From NCBI GenBank assembly GCA_947598825.1, contig CANQFM010000012.1, forward strand, positions 1,041 to 65,040: a stretch of DNA of 64,000 bases, given 5' to 3'. This DNA comes from an uncultured Eisenbergiella sp. (lineage in GTDB: Bacteria; Bacillota; Clostridia; Lachnospirales; Lachnospiraceae). Made by a program: the position numbers and the translations under genes. Below are positions 47,250 through 54,264 of the stretch, piece by piece. The number at the start of each line of letters is the position of its first letter. Within the stretch, counting starts at the first letter, position 1. Below the pieces are notes generated by a model. The model made no database searches. It saw only the letters and a program-made list of their open reading frames with translations, and was not told the DNA's origin.

Positions 47250-47513
47250 ATGGCATTTAATAAATCCGAAAGACCGGAATCCCCCGCCAAGAGAAGAGGC
47301 GGCGTACGCAGAAGGAAGAAAGTCTGCGTTTTCTGCGGAAAAGACAACGTGATCGATTATAAGGACGCCAATAAGCTCAAAAGATATGTGTCCGAGAGAG
47401 GAAAGATCCTTCCCAGAAGGATCACCGGCAACTGCGCGAAGCATCAGAGAGCGCTGACCGTTGCGATCAAGAGAGCGCGTCATCTGGCGCTTATGCCTTA
47501 TATCGCCGAATGA
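47250..47513 (+). CDS. rpsR: 30S ribosomal protein S18 (zinc-ribbon C+ form)
   Basis: [49 protein letters not shown]. Confidence 0.98.
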
Positions 47514-47555
47514 ATTTAAGAAAGAGGGGCTGTCGGGAAATAACCAGCCCTAAGG

Positions 47556-47595
47556 CAGGGAGGTATGGAAAGTAACTGGCTTTCATACCTCCCTG
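47556..47595. terminator. Stem-loop downstream of rpsR
   Basis: CAGGGAGGTAT(G)GAAAG / CTTTC ATACCTCCCTG arms with a weak T-tail. Confidence 0.55.
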
Positions 47596-47665
47596 AAATT
47601 TTAGAAAAAGATGGCCCAAAAACCACCTTTTTTCCGTTCCATGTTACAATGGAACTATGCTCACC

Positions 47666-47804
47666 AATGATCCAGTCCGGCGTTATGTGACATTCGCGGC
47701 ATCCTTTATAAACGCCGGGCAGATTATGATCTTTGTATTCAGCCGGTAATTCCTGGCCGGACGCCAGCATACTCACGACATTTTCAAGCCGTAATCATCA
47801 GCAT
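47666..47804 (-). pseudogene. yafQ: Degraded YafQ-family mRNA-interferase toxin gene
   Basis: RLENVVSMLASGQELPAEYKDHNLPGVYKGCRECHITPDWII. Preceded in frame by a stop, and missing both the N-terminal segment and the C-terminal catalytic His region. Confidence 0.75.
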
Positions 47805-47925
47805 CCAAATTCTCCATCAGTTTCGATACAGACGAAAATCCACAGTTCAGGCCAATGCCGTTTCGCGCATCTTCGATTGCCTTTAGGGTGGCGGCGCTTG
47901 GTATGGGATTTCCAACGGAATCTCG
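47773..47925 (-). pseudogene. dinJ: Degraded DinJ/RelB-family antitoxin gene (C-terminal half)
   Basis: IPSAATLKAIEDARNGIGLNCGFSSVSKLMENLDAD, with IPLEI in a shifted frame upstream. It overlaps the yafQ remnant start and the N-terminal RHH part is absent. Confidence 0.65.
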
Positions 47926-48044
47926 GATTACAATTCAAGAAATTTATTACAAAGTTTCCGCCCGGGATATGGTATACTTATGATACAGAAAGCTATTTCT
48001 CCGCCGTTTCCAAAAAACAGCGGGTACAGAGGAGAAAGTGCCAT

Positions 48045-49859
48045 ATGCAGAGGGACAATTCTTTCGGGGAACTGCTGTTTCGTTTGCGGGAACGAAAAGG
48101 GGTCAGCCAGTCGAGACTGTGCAGGGGCCTGTGTTCCGTTTCCGCGCTTTCGAGGTACGAAAGAGGAGAGCGGGCGCCCCATATGCTTTTGTTTAACGCA
48201 TTGATGCAGAGACTGGGAGCATCGGTGGTCAGCCTAAACGCGGTGATATCCATCCGGGAATATCACTATCTGTCCTGGAAAGGGCAGATCCTGCAGGCGG
48301 CCAGAGAAAATCGGATCCGAACCGTGCAGGAGTTGCTTAAGGATCCCGTTTCCCTTGGCGAAGTGGGAGATCGCGCCCTGCAGGAACAGTTTTTGTATGT
48401 TATGCGGTCTTTTCTGCAGGAACGGCGGGGAAAGGATTCCGAAAGTATGGAGCTTTTGAAAAAAGCGGCCAGTCTTACCGTCCCCGTGGATCGCGTACCG
48501 TTTCGGGAGCTTCTTTTGAGTGCCGGGGAGACATTTATTCTGGTGAAGCTGTCGGATCTTTTGGTAAAAAACGGCGAAAAAGCGCAGGCTGGAAAGCTGC
48601 TTTGGGAACTCATAGGTTATTTGGAAAGGAATATGGAAGATGAGATGCGAAGCATCCTGTATCCGCAGGTAGTCCGGATTCTGGCCCCGCTCCTTCTGGA
48701 AGAAAGACGCTTTTCGGAATGCGGACAGTTGTGCCGTAAAGCCATAGAAATGCTGCGGGACACGGGACATCTTGCGGATATGGAGGAATTGCTCTCCTGT
48801 TATCTGCGCTGCGATTGCCAGGGGGAGTATGCCGGGCGGTGCCGGAAATGGCTGTGGACGGTTCGGGAGATTTTCCGACGGTATCCTGTGGAAAAAAATA
48901 ACGGCATCTTTCCCTGTCAGTGGGAGCAGGAGCTTTATCTGATCCAGGAGATGATCCGCGCCTACCGGGTCATGGACGGTCTGTCTCAGGAGGAAATGAG
49001 CGGCCTGCTGTTTTCTCCCGAGACTTTATCCCGGGCGGAAAACGGGAAGCATACCTTGCATACGGAGCATTATTTTGCGGTGCGCGAAAGACTGTCGGTG
49101 GAGGAGGAATTTATCAATCCGCGGCTGCATACGAGGGATTACTTTATTCTGGAGAAAATGCAAAAGGTATACCGGGCCATTTCCACGACCCGCTATGAGG
49201 ATGCGGAAAGGGAATTGGCGCAGGTAAGGGCGAGCCTTGAAAAAAGCGGCGAGTTGTCGGACGAATATAATCAGAGTGTTCTGGAGATGACAAATGTTAC
49301 CATTCTTTCTTCTTTAAAAAAGGTGGGAAGGAAAGAAGTGATCGCATCCTGCGAAAGATTCTTAAAGTGCGAGTATCCGGATATTTTCGAGGAGCCTTTC
49401 TGGAACCGGTATCTTTCAAAGGCCAGGGCGGAAGCCCTAAATCACATCGCCGTGGCGATTGTTTCAACAGAGCGGGAAAAGGCGGTTTTTATCTGGGAGC
49501 ATCTTCTGGAGCAGTTGAAAAAGAGCCGGGTTTTACTGCCGGACAGGTACAGTTCGGCCATGCTTCCTATCGTCAATCTTTCGACCTGTTATGGAATGAT
49601 GGGCCGCTATCAGGACTGCGTCAGGATATGCCTTGCAGGTATTTCTCTTTGCTGTCAAAAGGATAGATATATAACTTTCAGTAAACTGATGGGCAATTAT
49701 GGGGAAACGCGCATCTTCCTTGGTGATCAGAAAGAGGATTATCGGGAGATGTTCCGGCAGGTCTATTATCTGGCGGATTTGTTTCAAATCAAGAAGGAAA
49801 TGAAATATTACGACAGATATTACAGGGAAAACTTTGACAGGGATGTTGAGTGGTATTAA
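48045..49859 (+). CDS. Tandem (XRE-HTH + TPR-like) x2 transcriptional regulator, Rgg/RRNPP-like
   Basis: HTH1 LLFRLRERKGVSQSRLCRGLCSVSALSRYERGER. HTH2 (from 48951) MIRAYRVMDGLSQEEMSGLLFSPETLSRAENGK. Each is followed by about 240 aa of amphipathic helical repeats. GGAG RBS before ATG 48045. Confidence 0.82.
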   Translation: MQRDNSFGELLFRLRERKGVSQSRLCRGLCSVSALSRYERGERAPHMLLFNALMQRLGASVVSLNAVISIREYHYLSWKGQILQAARENRIRTVQELLKDPVSLGEVGDRALQEQFLYVMRSFLQERRGKDSESMELLKKAASLTVPVDRVPFRELLLSAGETFILVKLSDLLVKNGEKAQAGKLLWELIGYLERNMEDEMRSILYPQVVRILAPLLLEERRFSECGQLCRKAIEMLRDTGHLADMEELLSCYLRCDCQGEYAGRCRKWLWTVREIFRRYPVEKNNGIFPCQWEQELYLIQEMIRAYRVMDGLSQEEMSGLLFSPETLSRAENGKHTLHTEHYFAVRERLSVEEEFINPRLHTRDYFILEKMQKVYRAISTTRYEDAERELAQVRASLEKSGELSDEYNQSVLEMTNVTILSSLKKVGRKEVIASCERFLKCEYPDIFEEPFWNRYLSKARAEALNHIAVAIVSTEREKAVFIWEHLLEQLKKSRVLLPDRYSSAMLPIVNLSTCYGMMGRYQDCVRICLAGISLCCQKDRYITFSKLMGNYGETRIFLGDQKEDYREMFRQVYYLADLFQIKKEMKYYDRYYRENFDRDVEWY

Positions 49860-50044
49860 ATTATAGATTCTTTATAGTCTTCCCCATCGTAATTTGGTTC
49901 GCAAGATTCTTCATATTCGGTGACAACGTCTTGCCCGGGTTTGCCGATAGAAGGACAGAGAGGATGCAGGATTTCTGAACCCAGTACCTCTGTGAATATC
50001 AGAAAGGAAAAGAACGGAATCACTAGTTTAAAAAAAGTTTTCAT
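49856..50044 (-). CDS. 62-aa exported peptide, candidate signalling-peptide precursor
   Basis: AGAGGTGA RBS and TATAAT (50063-50068). MKTFFK, a hydrophobic core LVIPFFSFLIFTEVLG, then an acidic tail. The stop overlaps the regulator stop. Confidence 0.7.
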   Translation of the reverse strand: MKTFFKLVIPFFSFLIFTEVLGSEILHPLCPSIGKPGQDVVTEYEESCEPNYDGEDYKESII

Positions 50045-50087
50045 GACATCACCTCTATTGTTATTATATGGATATATATGCTATGCC

Positions 50088-50131
50088 ACCATGACATTTC
50101 CGGGGAATTATTTCCCCGGAAATGTCATGGT
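50088..50131. promoter_or_regulatory. Perfect 44-bp palindrome in a divergent promoter region
   Basis: ACCATGACATTTCCGGGGAA-TTAT-TTCCCCGGAAATGTCATGGT, 20-bp arms. Confidence 0.85.
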
Positions 50132-50399
50132 TATTTGGAGAAAGGGACTGATATAATATAACTAGCTATAATAGGGGGCGATTTTGAGTAAAGAAATAAC
50201 ACAAATACAATATCAGAGATATATAATACCATGGGTTTTACAAAGCCGATTGAACAAAGTTATCAAGGTACATGTTTATGTATCTGGAAAATATTATACG
50301 AGGGGGAATAAATATGAAGGCCAGAAGTCCATAGTATTTTGAAAAAATTATATAACGGATCATATGTAGAGTAAAAAGTAGAGGAGGGAATAGAAGTAC

Positions 50400-50792
50400 A
50401 TGAAGAAAACAATACTTTTATTTGCAATATGCCTAATTTTTGGCAATAGTATAACAGCGTTTGCAGATACGGGGAAATTTTATTTCCGTATTGAACCTGG
50501 AAAAACACAAAATTCTTCCGATGTAAAAAAAGCAGATGATGAGCAGAGAGCATATGTCACTTCTACTGTTTCCATAGGTGAAGAATATTTATCTGTGTTT
50601 GTAATTGATTCTGTCGGTGAACAGGTAACCTCCGATTTGAATTTTTATTCTGGTGAACTGGCTACAAAAGTGAGTCCGTATTTGGAAGGAAGCAGGGGAA
50701 TTGCAGGAGAATATTATCGGTTACATGGTTGGGATCGAGATCATGCGATTACGACTTCACAATATATCTTGGAAGGAAAATGGACTCCCTGA
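50400..50792 (+). CDS. AT-rich secreted 130-aa protein of unknown function
   Basis: GAGGAGGG RBS and Sec signal MKKTILLFAICLIFGNSITAFA. Mature part contains KKADDEQRAYVT and ends LEGKWTP. Confidence 0.85.
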   Translation: MKKTILLFAICLIFGNSITAFADTGKFYFRIEPGKTQNSSDVKKADDEQRAYVTSTVSIGEEYLSVFVIDSVGEQVTSDLNFYSGELATKVSPYLEGSRGIAGEYYRLHGWDRDHAITTSQYILEGKWTP

Positions 50793-50819
50793 TCTGACGG
50801 ATTGATAAGAGCTTTGAGC

Positions 50820-50850
50820 GTCCGCCTGAGGAAATTCTTCTCAGGCGGAC
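50820..50850 (+). other. Intercistronic stem-loop without a U-tail after the secreted-protein gene
   Basis: GTCCGCCTGAG / CTCAGGCGGAC 11-bp perfect arms. Confidence 0.7.
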
Positions 50851-50870
50851 TTGGAAGTACGGAGAAAAAG

Positions 50871-51524
50871 ATGACGGAAGAAAAGCACAGTTTACAGATT
50901 AAAAACGTGGGAAAGCGCTTTGGCGCCAGACAGGTGCTTGACGGAATATCCCTTTCGGCGCAGGAAGGGACGGCGCTGGGTTTTGTTGGACATAACGGCT
51001 CCGGGAAGACCGTTTTGTTTAAATGTATCTGCGGATTTCTGGCGGTCAGTGAGGGAGAAATTCTGATAGACAATATACCGGTGGGAATCGGGGAGAGGAT
51101 GCCCCACAATATTGCCTGCTCCATAGAGGAACCGGCGTTTCTGGAAGAATACAGCGGGTTACAGAATCTGGATTTTCTGTATCGGTTAAGGCACAGAAAG
51201 GACAGGCAGAAAATGCGGGATTTCATGGAACTGGTGCATCTCGATTCGACGGACAAAAAAAGAGTCGGGAAATATTCCCTGGGGATGAAACAGCGGCTGG
51301 CACTTGCGCAGGTGCTGATGGAGGATCAGCCGTTCCTTATCCTGGACGAGCCGATGAACGGGCTGGACAGGCAGGGGAGTTCGTTGATCCGGGAACTTTT
51401 GCTGGAGGAAAAGAGGAAAGGCAAGATTATCCTGCTGGCCAGTCATAATCCTCAGGACATTGATATTCTATGCGACCGGGTGTATGAGCTGGAAAACGGG
51501 AGGATCGTGTATGAAAAAGGGTAA
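50871..51524 (+). CDS. ABC transporter ATP-binding protein (CcmA/BcrA-like)
   Basis: GHNGSGKT, YSLGMKQRLALAQ, ILDEPMNGLD, LASHN. Confidence 0.93.
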   Translation: MTEEKHSLQIKNVGKRFGARQVLDGISLSAQEGTALGFVGHNGSGKTVLFKCICGFLAVSEGEILIDNIPVGIGERMPHNIACSIEEPAFLEEYSGLQNLDFLYRLRHRKDRQKMRDFMELVHLDSTDKKRVGKYSLGMKQRLALAQVLMEDQPFLILDEPMNGLDRQGSSLIRELLLEEKRKGKIILLASHNPQDIDILCDRVYELENGRIVYEKG

Positions 51525-52614
51525 TATCGGGATTTTGGCGCTTCTTTTGCTGATTGTGTGCGTATTCGCATATTCCTATCTTTTGCCGGGGCGCAGGGTG
51601 TCAGGCGGAGGGAGCGGCGGGGAAGAATCGCTGGAAATCCCCGACGCATACCAAGAGGTTCTTAATGGGAATCATGAAATTGACGCCCAGGTGAATGTAC
51701 CGGACTGTATCCGGGAAAAGGGCTTTCGGGAAGCGTGGGCCGTTCCGGCTTCCAATGATCATCAAACGGTCTTGTCGCTGTTTGAGGAATATGCTCCCAG
51801 ACAGGTTGAGGTGGACGATTCTATGACGGAAAAGCTGTGCAGATACGAGGGGGAAGATGGGTTTTTCCTCCTGCTTTTTTATGGAGACAGCCATGCTTCG
51901 ATGTCCAGCAGGCAGGGCGATTGTATCAAAATGGCTTACCGGTACGATGAAAGGACGGACGGTTATAACAGAGAACTCTATTCTCTGACGCAGCAATTGT
52001 CTTCTTTCCCCCGTCGGGAATGTGAAGAAAGAATCCGTGCGATGTGCAGAGCCCTTGGCGTAAAAGGAGATTATAGGGTTGCCGCCCGTTTGATGGAGCA
52101 TGAAACCATGGAGCGGGAGGCTGTCCAGTTAAATAAGGACGGAACAGAGCAAAAACCCGATTATACGTTTGGAGAAGCGGATGACGGGTATTTTTGCACG
52201 ATTTCCCAACTGTGCAACGATATTCCGGTTCTTTATTCCTATTCGGCGGGCCTGGTCGAAAGCGACGTCCTCAATTACGGGCCAATCGAATGCTATCTCA
52301 CAAAGGAACGAATCCCGTTTTTATATGTGGATTACGCTTTCGATATCACTTACGAGGAAAGTTATCTGAAACTGCTTCCCTTTGCGCGGGTGGTAGAGCG
52401 ATATTGGGAAACAAGGGAACTGGAAGCAGCCACAAAGCATTCCAGAATTACCCGGATTGAATTGCGGGCGCTGGCAGTACAGGACGGCACCCATTCCTGC
52501 CGCATAGAACCGGTCTGGTTTTTTGCGGGATATGAATGGAACGACGGGGAAATCTCGCTTCCGGAGCTGCCTTTTTCGGTTGGAATCCATGCGGTAACGG
52601 GAGAGGAAGTGTGA
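51511..52614 (+). CDS. Membrane-anchored extracytoplasmic protein of unknown function
   Basis: N-terminal TM ILALLLLIVCVFAYSYLL. C-terminal IEPVWFF..VGIHAVTGEE is PepSY/YycI-like. Overlaps the ATPase stop. Confidence 0.75.
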   Translation: MKKGNIGILALLLLIVCVFAYSYLLPGRRVSGGGSGGEESLEIPDAYQEVLNGNHEIDAQVNVPDCIREKGFREAWAVPASNDHQTVLSLFEEYAPRQVEVDDSMTEKLCRYEGEDGFFLLLFYGDSHASMSSRQGDCIKMAYRYDERTDGYNRELYSLTQQLSSFPRRECEERIRAMCRALGVKGDYRVAARLMEHETMEREAVQLNKDGTEQKPDYTFGEADDGYFCTISQLCNDIPVLYSYSAGLVESDVLNYGPIECYLTKERIPFLYVDYAFDITYEESYLKLLPFARVVERYWETRELEAATKHSRITRIELRALAVQDGTHSCRIEPVWFFAGYEWNDGEISLPELPFSVGIHAVTGEEV

Positions 52615-52618
52615 TAAG

Positions 52619-53446
52619 ATGTTGCGAGGCGTAGGAACAGAAAAAAAAGGGAAAAGAAGATACGGCATTTATTTGACGGATCTGCGGCGCGCTTTTCTTT
52701 CCCCGTCCTTTCTTGTAGCTGCGGCGGCCGGAACGGCAGTTTGTTTTCTTTCTTTGAAATCCGTAAATTATGAACGTTACCCGGACAAGGATGCCGTGTA
52801 TGCCTGGTGGGTGATCAACGGCACCAGCATTTCCCTGCTGGCCCATTTAACGGGGCTGATCCCATATTCTCTCTGTTTTTACCGGGACTTTTGCAGAGGA
52901 AATTATAAAAATATGCTTTCCCGCATTGGTCTGGAGGATTATGTGCTGTCTAAGGCGTTTGCCGCTTTTCTTTCGTCTGCGGCGGCCTTTGCGGCAGGAA
53001 AGCTGTTGTTTGTGTACCTGTTTGTCCAAAAGTATCCGTTTTTATCCGGTGAGAATACACTCCTTTCCATTTCGGCATCTTACCGGCTGTTTTATTCCTT
53101 TTTGGTCAAAGGGCAGTACCCGGCTTATTTTCTGGCCGCTTCTCTGATGCAGGCCATGTATTGCGGGATTCTGTGTCTGTTTGTGCTGGGAGTATCCATT
53201 GTCATCCCCAGGCCGGATGTCTTATATGCCGTTCCCATCGCGGTTTTTTATGTGGTAAATTTTTATCTGAGAGATAGGCTGCATCTGTCTCCGCTTTTGG
53301 ATTTCCCCTATATTTTTGATGGGGAAACCCGTTTGTTTTCTAACGATGCGGCCGGAGTCTGGTATGCGGCTGCCGTGACGGCCGTTATGTTTTTACTCCT
53401 GTATGCGGGTATGCTCCGGCTGGTGAAAAAGAGGGTATACGGATGA
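52619..53446 (+). CDS. Six-TM membrane protein, probable ABC-2-like permease subunit
   Basis: Six hydrophobic segments and YKNMLSRIG..YVLSKA motif. Coupled to neighbours. Confidence 0.75.
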   Translation: MLRGVGTEKKGKRRYGIYLTDLRRAFLSPSFLVAAAAGTAVCFLSLKSVNYERYPDKDAVYAWWVINGTSISLLAHLTGLIPYSLCFYRDFCRGNYKNMLSRIGLEDYVLSKAFAAFLSSAAAFAAGKLLFVYLFVQKYPFLSGENTLLSISASYRLFYSFLVKGQYPAYFLAASLMQAMYCGILCLFVLGVSIVIPRPDVLYAVPIAVFYVVNFYLRDRLHLSPLLDFPYIFDGETRLFSNDAAGVWYAAAVTAVMFLLLYAGMLRLVKKRVYG

Positions 53447-54264
53447 AAAAGGTGCTGTTATATGATCGAATTTTGCTGCGAAAGAATCTGTGCTGTGTGA
53501 GGGCAGCCGTATCGCTGCTGCTTCTTGCCGTGGTGACGGACGCTTTTCTCAAGCCGGTCAGGGCGTTTTGCTACGGGAGAGGGGTAAAAGTGTCTCAGTG
53601 GGGTTTCCCTCTGTTCTGGGGGAATCGATATGTGGGCCTGGCTTTTTTTCTTATTTTTCTTTACGGAGTCTGCGCATTGTCGGAAGAACCGGACAGGGAA
53701 TTGTATATTCTGAACCGGATCGGCAGGAGAAAATGGGTGGCGGGACAATTTCTGTTCCAGATTATGTACGGGTGGATTTACACAGTTTGCCTGTATGCGC
53801 TTCACTTCCTTTTTCTGCTTCCCGTCATGCGTTTTGAGAAAGGATGGGGAGCAGGCTGGAGGATTCTGACGGACGATACGGTGCGGGCGCAGTATCATAT
53901 TCTTTTGGAAATTTCCCGTTATGTATTATCCAACGAGGATCCCGTACTGACTGCAGGCTGGCAGTTTCTGATGCTGGGTCTGACGTTTGGCTTCCTGGGG
54001 GCACTTATGCTCTGGCTGCGTTTTTACGGCCCACTCTGGGGGGCAGCCGCCGGGACATTTTTCATTTTCTGGAGTATTTCGCTGGAGCGGTTCGGAGATC
54101 GGATGTACCGGTTCTCGCCCCTGTCCTGGATACAGAAAAACCGAATATACCAGACGGCGCATCCGCTGTATCCGACCACCGCTTATGCGGTGGCCATGTT
54201 GATTTTGTTCACACTTTTGTTTTTTTGTATGGCGCAGAGGGAAGCGATGCGGGCGGAACTTTGA
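53443..54264 (+). CDS. Six-TM membrane protein, probable second permease subunit
   Basis: ATGA overlap with the previous gene, YILNRIGRRKWV motif, FSPLSW, six hydrophobic segments. Confidence 0.75.
   Translation: MKKVLLYDRILLRKNLCCVRAAVSLLLLAVVTDAFLKPVRAFCYGRGVKVSQWGFPLFWGNRYVGLAFFLIFLYGVCALSEEPDRELYILNRIGRRKWVAGQFLFQIMYGWIYTVCLYALHFLFLLPVMRFEKGWGAGWRILTDDTVRAQYHILLEISRYVLSNEDPVLTAGWQFLMLGLTFGFLGALMLWLRFYGPLWGAAAGTFFIFWSISLERFGDRMYRFSPLSWIQKNRIYQTAHPLYPTTAYAVAMLILFTLLFFCMAQREAMRAEL

Follow-up and report, generated by a model that had tools for sequence, protein, structure and literature searches.

The perfect 44-bp palindrome at positions 50088-50131 of the window, i.e., of the whole 64,000-nucleotide stretch of DNA from an uncultured Eisenbergiella sp. 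analyzed here, can be considered the probable operator of the adjacent 604-aa doubled PlcR-like regulator, composed of two sites of approximately 20 bp placed back to back; to this reading, based on sequence comparison, we assign a probability of roughly 0.75. The palindrome is located between two divergent units: to its left, read from the minus strand, is the gene of a 62-aa exported peptide, and to its right, read from the plus strand, a secreted-protein/ABC operon. The features of the locus, in the order of their coordinates, are as follows:

48045-49859, plus strand: gene of the 604-aa regulator with two tandem HTH_3/HTH_31 + TPR modules, the proposed dyad binder (Pfam, PDB profile, AF2, Foldseek)
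49856-50044, minus strand: gene of the 62-aa exported pro-peptide, with the ribosome-binding site GAGGTG at 50050-50055 (ORF list; signal-like N-terminus)
50063-50068, minus strand: predicted -10 box TATAAT of the peptide gene promoter (direct reading)
50088-50131, no strand assigned: the palindrome, proposed operator with two regulator sites back to back (repeat search, genome rarity, dyads at the homologous position)
50088-50107, minus strand: peptide-side arm, at approximately -32 to -51 of the predicted minus-strand promoter, centre at about -41.5 (counted from TATAAT at 50068-50063)
50089-50095, no strand assigned: outer sub-site CCATGAC, with its mirror GTCATGG at 50124-50130 (conservation in half-sites)
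50101-50107, no strand assigned: inner sub-site CGGGGAA, with its mirror TTCCCCG at 50112-50118, approximately 11 bp from the outer one (consensus yGGrAA in both clades)
50112-50131, plus strand: operon-side arm, at approximately -33 to -52 of the predicted plus-strand promoter, centre at about -42.5 (counted from TATAAT at 50152-50157)
50149-50157, plus strand: predicted extended -10 box TGaTATAAT of the divergent operon promoter (TG at 50149-50150, TATAAT at 50152-50157)
50400-54264, plus strand: divergent operon, the proposed target, encoding a 130-aa secreted protein, an ABC ATPase, a DUF6034 protein, and two membrane proteins (ORFs and Pfam)

The palindrome, ACCATGACATTTCCGGGGAA-TTAT-TTCCCCGGAAATGTCATGGT, is a 20+4+20 inverted repeat whose 20-nt arms, 50088-50107 and 50112-50131, are separated by the 4-nt TTAT spacer and are 100% complementary; both direct reading and the repeat search agree with the initial annotation, which had described it as free of mismatches. 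Scored as 22+0+22 it contains one mismatch, and a larger imperfect symmetry around it was picked up by the repeat search (I2). No match to the arm was found in shuffled window sequences. Within the source genome (3.05 Mb, 53% G+C) there are 40 perfect inverted repeats with arms of at least 14 nt and loops of at most 14 nt, and the palindrome, with its arm of 20, is the joint longest of them. A genome scan for half-sites, suggested earlier, disclosed no further site in the 3.05 Mb: a second dyad with an arm at two or fewer mismatches is absent, i.e., the palindrome is single-copy, and the other matches to the arm, which have 2-4 mismatches, all stand singly inside coding sequence, do not form dyads, and have no -10 box at the right offset. 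A metagenome scan with the exact arm CCATGACATTTYCGGGGAA returned 13 matches, approximately the number expected by chance, every one of them single and non-palindromic, and most having one unrelated conserved context in common. In a 97%-identical strain (G014/L027) the palindrome is identical at 44 of 44 positions, which is not significant, as 3% divergence predicts only about 1.3 changes; G000 and G014 are too close for this identity to mean much.

These counts bear on the view that the palindrome is a structural or mobile DNA element unlinked to the regulator, such as a cruciform, a recombination or inversion site, or the end of a MITE or REP element. Judging from its predicted fold, a perfect palindrome of 44 bp whose centre is AT-rich could be extruded as a cruciform under supercoiling; the observations can be explained without such extrusion. 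The single copy in 3.05 Mb argues against a MITE or a REP-type repeat, the former having been named in the initial annotation as an outcome that would overturn the operator; an inverton was rejected, the arms being adjacent with no invertible segment between them. Additionally, no recombinase was seen among the adjacent ORFs, and the dyad accompanies the regulator family across many genera with differing arm sequences. A structural or mobile origin is accordingly given a very low probability.

Other palindromes are present in the same genome: one more perfect palindrome with 20-bp arms (GCCGTCTAATGGTATTAGAC...) at C20:10667, and four copies of a 16+4+16 palindrome (GATTGAAAAATGAGCT... / GTGTGAAAAATGAGTT...) at C75:7848, C6:32288, C58:280, and C30:6351. 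They may be operators of other regulons or members of a repeat family.

The regulator is PlcR/Rgg/ComR-like in both sequence and fold and is of an RRNPP-like family. Its two halves share 28% identity over the HTH parts. Compared with PDB, the regulator-family profile matches PlcR (2qfc, E = 9e-10) over nearly the full length of the C-terminal module, and the N-terminal module gives profile matches to Rgg and ComR. The AlphaFold2 (AF2) model is confident (pLDDT 90, pTM 0.90), and when it was submitted to Foldseek the top PDB match was the PlcR-PapR-DNA complex 3u3w, with ComR (5jub) also matching.

The peptide gene is convergent with the regulator gene and overlaps its stop codon. The pro-peptides of the subclade to which the window belongs (window 49856-50044, L072, L071, L075, and L028) have in common the C-terminal acidic motif C[ED]PNYDGE[DN]Y (CEPNYDGEDY in the 62-aa precursor), weaker in the remoter pro-peptides, and this motif is the likely location of the mature pheromone. 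On the other side of the palindrome, the operon leader of approximately 240 nt (region of window 50167-50342) contains a 52-aa ORF at 50184-50342 with GGGGG ahead of it, as well as a second TATAAT at 50167-50172 and a sigma70-like TTGAGT-16-TACAAT at 50184-50211; either the second TATAAT or the sigma70-like site might drive the operon independently. In L027/G014, of 97% DNA identity, approximately 496 bp corresponding to window 50165-50660 are missing. This gap starts right past the plus-strand -10 box and takes out the leader and approximately the first 87 codons of the gene for the 130-aa secreted protein; the palindrome and both -10 boxes are retained.

The relation of the palindrome to the two predicted promoters is the first of the arguments for the operator. 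As proposed initially, the minus-strand TATAAT at 50063-50068 places the -35 position of the peptide promoter at 50086-50091, and this reads TGGTGG, a non-consensus hexamer. At the plus-strand promoter the -35 position reads GGTTAT; thus neither promoter has a usable -35 box. The two -10 boxes are almost mirror-symmetric, located 19 and 20 bp outside the palindrome ends. The register was tested in the related loci by using the outer motif as an anchor and scoring every offset on both sides for a -10-like hexamer. Exactly 21 nt past GTCATG such a hexamer is present in 60% of 30 arm sides, and in the other clade it is found 24 nt past GTTTTGGT in 75% of 20 arm sides, in each case versus a background of approximately 5%. 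The scan gives a single sharp peak, and it does so on both sides of the dyad. The operon-side -10 box of the relatives is usually extended, TGnTAnAAT, and the plus-side TATnAT is invariant in the A2 alignment. The spacing between the two outer motifs varies among loci from 25 to 33 nt. The fixed 21-nt register in the relatives supports the earlier claim that the palindrome reaches with its edge into the -35 position of the peptide promoter, and the same -10 geometry on the plus side speaks for the suggestion, made there as a possibility, that the divergent operon is controlled as well. Control of both divergent promoters by the operator is thus judged likely. Counting against the operator reading are the predicted peptide leader, only approximately 12 nt long, and the second TATAAT and sigma70-like site from which the operon might be driven independently.

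The layout relative to the predicted -10 boxes would be that of class II sites, with arm centres at about -41.5 and -42.5, counted from start sites predicted near 50056 (minus strand) and 50164 (plus strand). The same site could be imagined to serve a repressor of the PrgX/Rgg3 type, in which the bound regulator would cover both -35 regions and the peptide would relieve the block. RRNPP regulators do include repressors, PrgX and Rgg3 among them; the site coincides with positions -32 to -52 at either promoter, and the operon promoter, whose extended -10 box TGaTATAAT is perfect, could fire with neither an activator nor a -35 box. Activation is nevertheless favoured, because both -35 boxes (TGGTGG and GGTTAT) are missing, because the site lies near -42, the classic class II activator position, and because the nearest relatives in sequence and structure, PlcR and ComR, are activators that auto-induce their peptide genes (PMC2464732, PMC5131891). 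The regulator probably activates rather than represses, and repression appears unlikely.

The second argument comes from the homologous loci. Of 400 Lachnospiraceae genomes sampled, 28 encode full-length homologues with two modules, frequently several each. Among the GTDB loci having a downstream flank, all 13 contain a long dyad 17-320 nt past the regulator stop. In a set of 37 loci, dyads with at least 15 matches are present within 450 nt after the regulator stop in 24; in the controls, 4 of 32 upstream flanks contain such a dyad, and 2 of the 37 loci reach 15 matches in any of 10 shuffles. A strong dyad is absent from the other 13 of the 37 loci, some of which have direct repeats or outer motifs alone. 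These dyads at the homologous position strengthen the initial assignment of the palindrome to an RRNPP-type regulator. The gene arrangement is also recurrent. A convergent ORF of 49-68 aa with a signal-like N-terminus and a GGAGG ribosome-binding site is present in 11 of 14 related loci, and also in L071, L072, and L075; it usually lies between the regulator stop and the dyad, the centre of the latter being 65-89 nt upstream of the peptide-ORF ATG (116 nt in one locus). In all related loci operons on the same strand lie to the right of the dyad, encoding ABC exporters, a C39-type exporter, and others.

Several loci depart from this scheme. L045 and L070 contain, 3' of the regulator, two direct copies of an 18-22-bp box (ACGTTCGCAyTTTGGCAC; GCAAACGTTTrAGTTTTGGTAA) and no single long inverted repeat, which suggests that the operator layout differs inside the regulator family. 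L073, whose regulator is 45% identical, has no peptide gene; its dyad begins 10 nt past the regulator stop, and both its HTH2 helix and its outer sub-site are degenerate. L012/L030 has an internal TAG in the regulator gene, a dyad that begins 17 nt past the stop, and then a gene for a CPBP-type membrane protease. In G019:C25 27395-29055 and G017:C33 13661-15450 the two modules are encoded, unfused, by two adjacent genes of approximately 300 aa each; such gene pairs may represent the state before the fusion, or else have arisen by splitting of the doubled regulator.

The third argument is the conservation of the arm itself. In the clade of the window the arm pattern is CCATGAC-N5-yGGrAA (aligned consensus aaAa.aCCATGACgTTTt.gGaaAA), with CCATGAC nearly invariant in 24 half-sites from 12 loci, and in the second clade it is TATACC-AAAA-CCGGAA (aligned consensus AAA...tATACCAAAACCGGA), with ACCAAAACCGGA nearly invariant in 20 half-sites. 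When the sequences of both clades are aligned on the -10 box, the outer sub-site (CATGAC or TATACC) falls 22-27 nt and the inner yGGrAA 33-38 nt upstream of the box, i.e., the two sub-sites are spaced by approximately 11 bp, about one helical turn. In the orthologues L071 and L072 (49% and 47% protein identity, respectively) the CCATGACATTTTCGGGGAA arms and the plus-side -10 box are kept, the outer sub-site being invariant, and the remaining intergenic DNA has diverged. The centre of the dyad is AT-rich, variable in length, and often non-complementary; in L050 only the outer words CCATGACG...CGTCATGG are present, the inner part being non-complementary. G-T mismatches are not enriched in the dyads (18 of 77 mismatches). 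The variable unpaired centres, the case of L050, and the lack of G-T enrichment point to a protein-binding site and argue against a selected hairpin.

The hairpin deserves consideration since the palindrome might act mainly as a terminator or insulator, halting the read-through from the regulator gene after the antisense peptide gene. The regulator gene and the operon are co-directional with no other hairpin between them, the stem folds with high stability as ssDNA (-24.5 kcal/mol, z = -9), T-runs directly follow the dyad in many relatives, and in L030, L068, and L073 the dyad begins only 10-17 nt past the regulator stop. In the window, however, such T-runs are lacking: the tail is TATTTGG, in line with the earlier remark that there is no T-tail, and a terminator scan of the window returned no match; an intrinsic terminator would be a G+C-rich stem with a U-tract behind it, at the 3' end of a transcription unit. 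Where T-runs are present in the relatives they flank the dyad symmetrically, although transcription of a gene from the right would not run into it. Conservation of the arm sequence goes beyond what pairing would demand, across regulators only 22-49% identical; the L050 dyad is unable to form a hairpin; the palindrome lies upstream of both flanking genes; and the two-sided -10 register would be left unexplained. Termination, raised initially as another outcome that would speak against the operator, is therefore very unlikely as the main role; since read-through from the regulator gene could still arrive at the palindrome, a weak secondary role as an insulator is conceivable, with less than even odds. 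An Rfam search of the palindrome produced nothing but sub-threshold miRNA/sRNA hairpin noise (at most 30 bits versus thresholds of 35-113).

Returning to the operator, the regulator very probably binds the palindrome, and each HTH may be assigned its own sub-site. The HTH2 helix-3 motif PETLSRxE pairs with CCATGAC, and DQKTxSRxE pairs with TATACC. In L073 and L075, where HTH2 is degenerate, the outer sub-site is altered as well, but both loci retain the HTH1 helix SVSAxSRYE and, in the dyad, the inner CGGGGAA. Over all loci the variation of HTH2 correlates with that of the outer sub-site at r = 0.65 versus 0.35 for the inner one, and the variation of HTH1 with that of the inner sub-site at r = 0.48 versus 0.22 for the outer one, the locus pairs being non-independent, with shared ancestry as a confounder. 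In clade A taken by itself, the covariation does not separate the HTH1 from the HTH2 assignment. The assignment of HTH2 to the outer and of HTH1 to the inner sub-site is thus suggestive only. The initial annotation had considered the operator long enough for four HTHs, and the presence of two conserved sub-sites per arm, approximately 11 bp apart, together with two HTHs per chain is consistent with that proposal. As a chain has two different HTHs, and an arm two different sub-sites spaced by one turn, the simplest model would place a single chain on each arm, with a total of four HTH contacts over the 44 bp; the odds of this model are about even.

Among the known systems, the closest is PlcR-PapR of the Bacillus cereus group. 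The PlcR box has a 16-bp consensus, TATGnAnnnnTnCATA or ATGhAwwwwTdCAT, and in some cases a single box serves divergent genes (PMC2464732). Common to the PlcR box and the palindrome are a dyad upstream of a sigma-A-type -10 box and a receptor with an XRE-HTH and TPRs, here the putative binder; common to both systems is also the location of the gene for a receptor of the PlcR fold beside a small exported pro-peptide gene. The palindrome does not conform to the PlcR box consensus: its arm, ATGACATTTCCGG, has C at the invariant A6 and no partner half-site 4 nt away. The PlcR box is 16 bp long, bound by a dimer of 34-kDa chains, and located at a variable distance from the -35 box, whereas the window dyad is 44 bp long, has four sub-sites and a different sequence, and lies in a fixed register over the -35 position on both sides. 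The regulators differ as well, that of the window being a single 604-aa chain with two HTH-TPR modules and having its peptide gene convergent and overlapping the regulator stop.

The ComR-box of the streptococcal ComRS system is a pseudo-palindrome of 20 bp, in the middle of which GACA and TGTC form an inverted repeat with a 4-nt gap; it is read by arginines of HTH helix 3 and drives the peptide gene and a target gene (PMC5131891). GACA and TGTC are present in the window arms in the same orientation, and to that extent the likeness to the ComR-box noted in the initial annotation stands. Membership does not follow from it, as GACA (50093-50096) and TGTC (50123-50126) are outer words 26 nt apart instead of 4 nt, and the sequence and fold match between ComR and the window regulator is weak. 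Class II sites at -41.5, for example those of CRP and FNR promoters, would share with the palindrome the position of the arm centres, approximately 41.5-42.5 bp upstream of the predicted start, the missing -35 box, and the good -10 box; they differ in that CRP and FNR are of an unrelated protein family, and in the window two sites are fused into one palindrome for two divergent promoters. The AimR operator of the SPbeta-like phages (arbitrium) also resembles the window dyad in serving an RRNPP-type receptor through widely spaced inverted half-sites. AimR, however, has a single HTH per chain and recognizes two short 6-bp half-sites separated by a long unconserved gap, whereas each window arm consists of two conserved sub-sites.

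A mechanism can be proposed on this basis. The imported mature peptide would load the regulator, and one chain would then dock on each arm, engaging both of its HTHs, tentatively HTH2 on the outer and HTH1 on the inner sub-site. Acting like a class II activator, the docked regulator would recruit RNA polymerase, and the outcome would be positive feedback on the peptide gene and switching on of the operon. More specifically, and somewhat short of an even chance, each arm might be a complete site for a covalently pre-dimerised chain, with HTH2 at approximately -36 and HTH1 at approximately -47, two class II sites being fused so that one signal fires two promoters; an RNA hairpin may also insulate the operon. 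Independence of the two back-to-back sites would account for a constant spacing of arm and -10 box in the face of the 25-33 nt drift between the arms. An autoregulatory site upstream of the regulator gene was sought, and neither CATGAC nor CGGGGAA words occur in 47500-48060. As no further site was found, either genome-wide or ahead of the regulator gene, the regulon seems to be purely local.

The palindrome extends the known kind of RRNPP-type operator, while its bidirectional layout with four sub-sites and the doubled-receptor family itself are undescribed. The literature search found no account of a doubled or pseudodimeric RRNPP receptor or its operator, and nothing relevant on an RRNPP system of Eisenbergiella or Lachnospiraceae. 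The RRNPP_detector survey takes receptors of 250-500 aa only (PMC10075063), so that doubled receptors of approximately 600 aa fall outside it. Peptide quorum sensing of the RRNPP type is well studied in Bacilli and barely charted in gut Clostridia, and the dyad would be the missing cis-element for the doubled-receptor family, the putative targets of which are ABC exporters, C39-type exporters, and secreted proteins. The clear half-site consensuses, the fixed promoter register, and the apparently purely local regulon make the circuit directly testable; for work with gut anaerobes, it could potentially be a source of bidirectional promoters that are compact, orthogonal, and peptide-inducible. 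It also raises the structural question of how a single chain with two different HTHs reads an asymmetric 20-bp site, and the binding of one chain per arm, if true, would be a new mode of DNA recognition for RRNPP quorum-sensing receptors.
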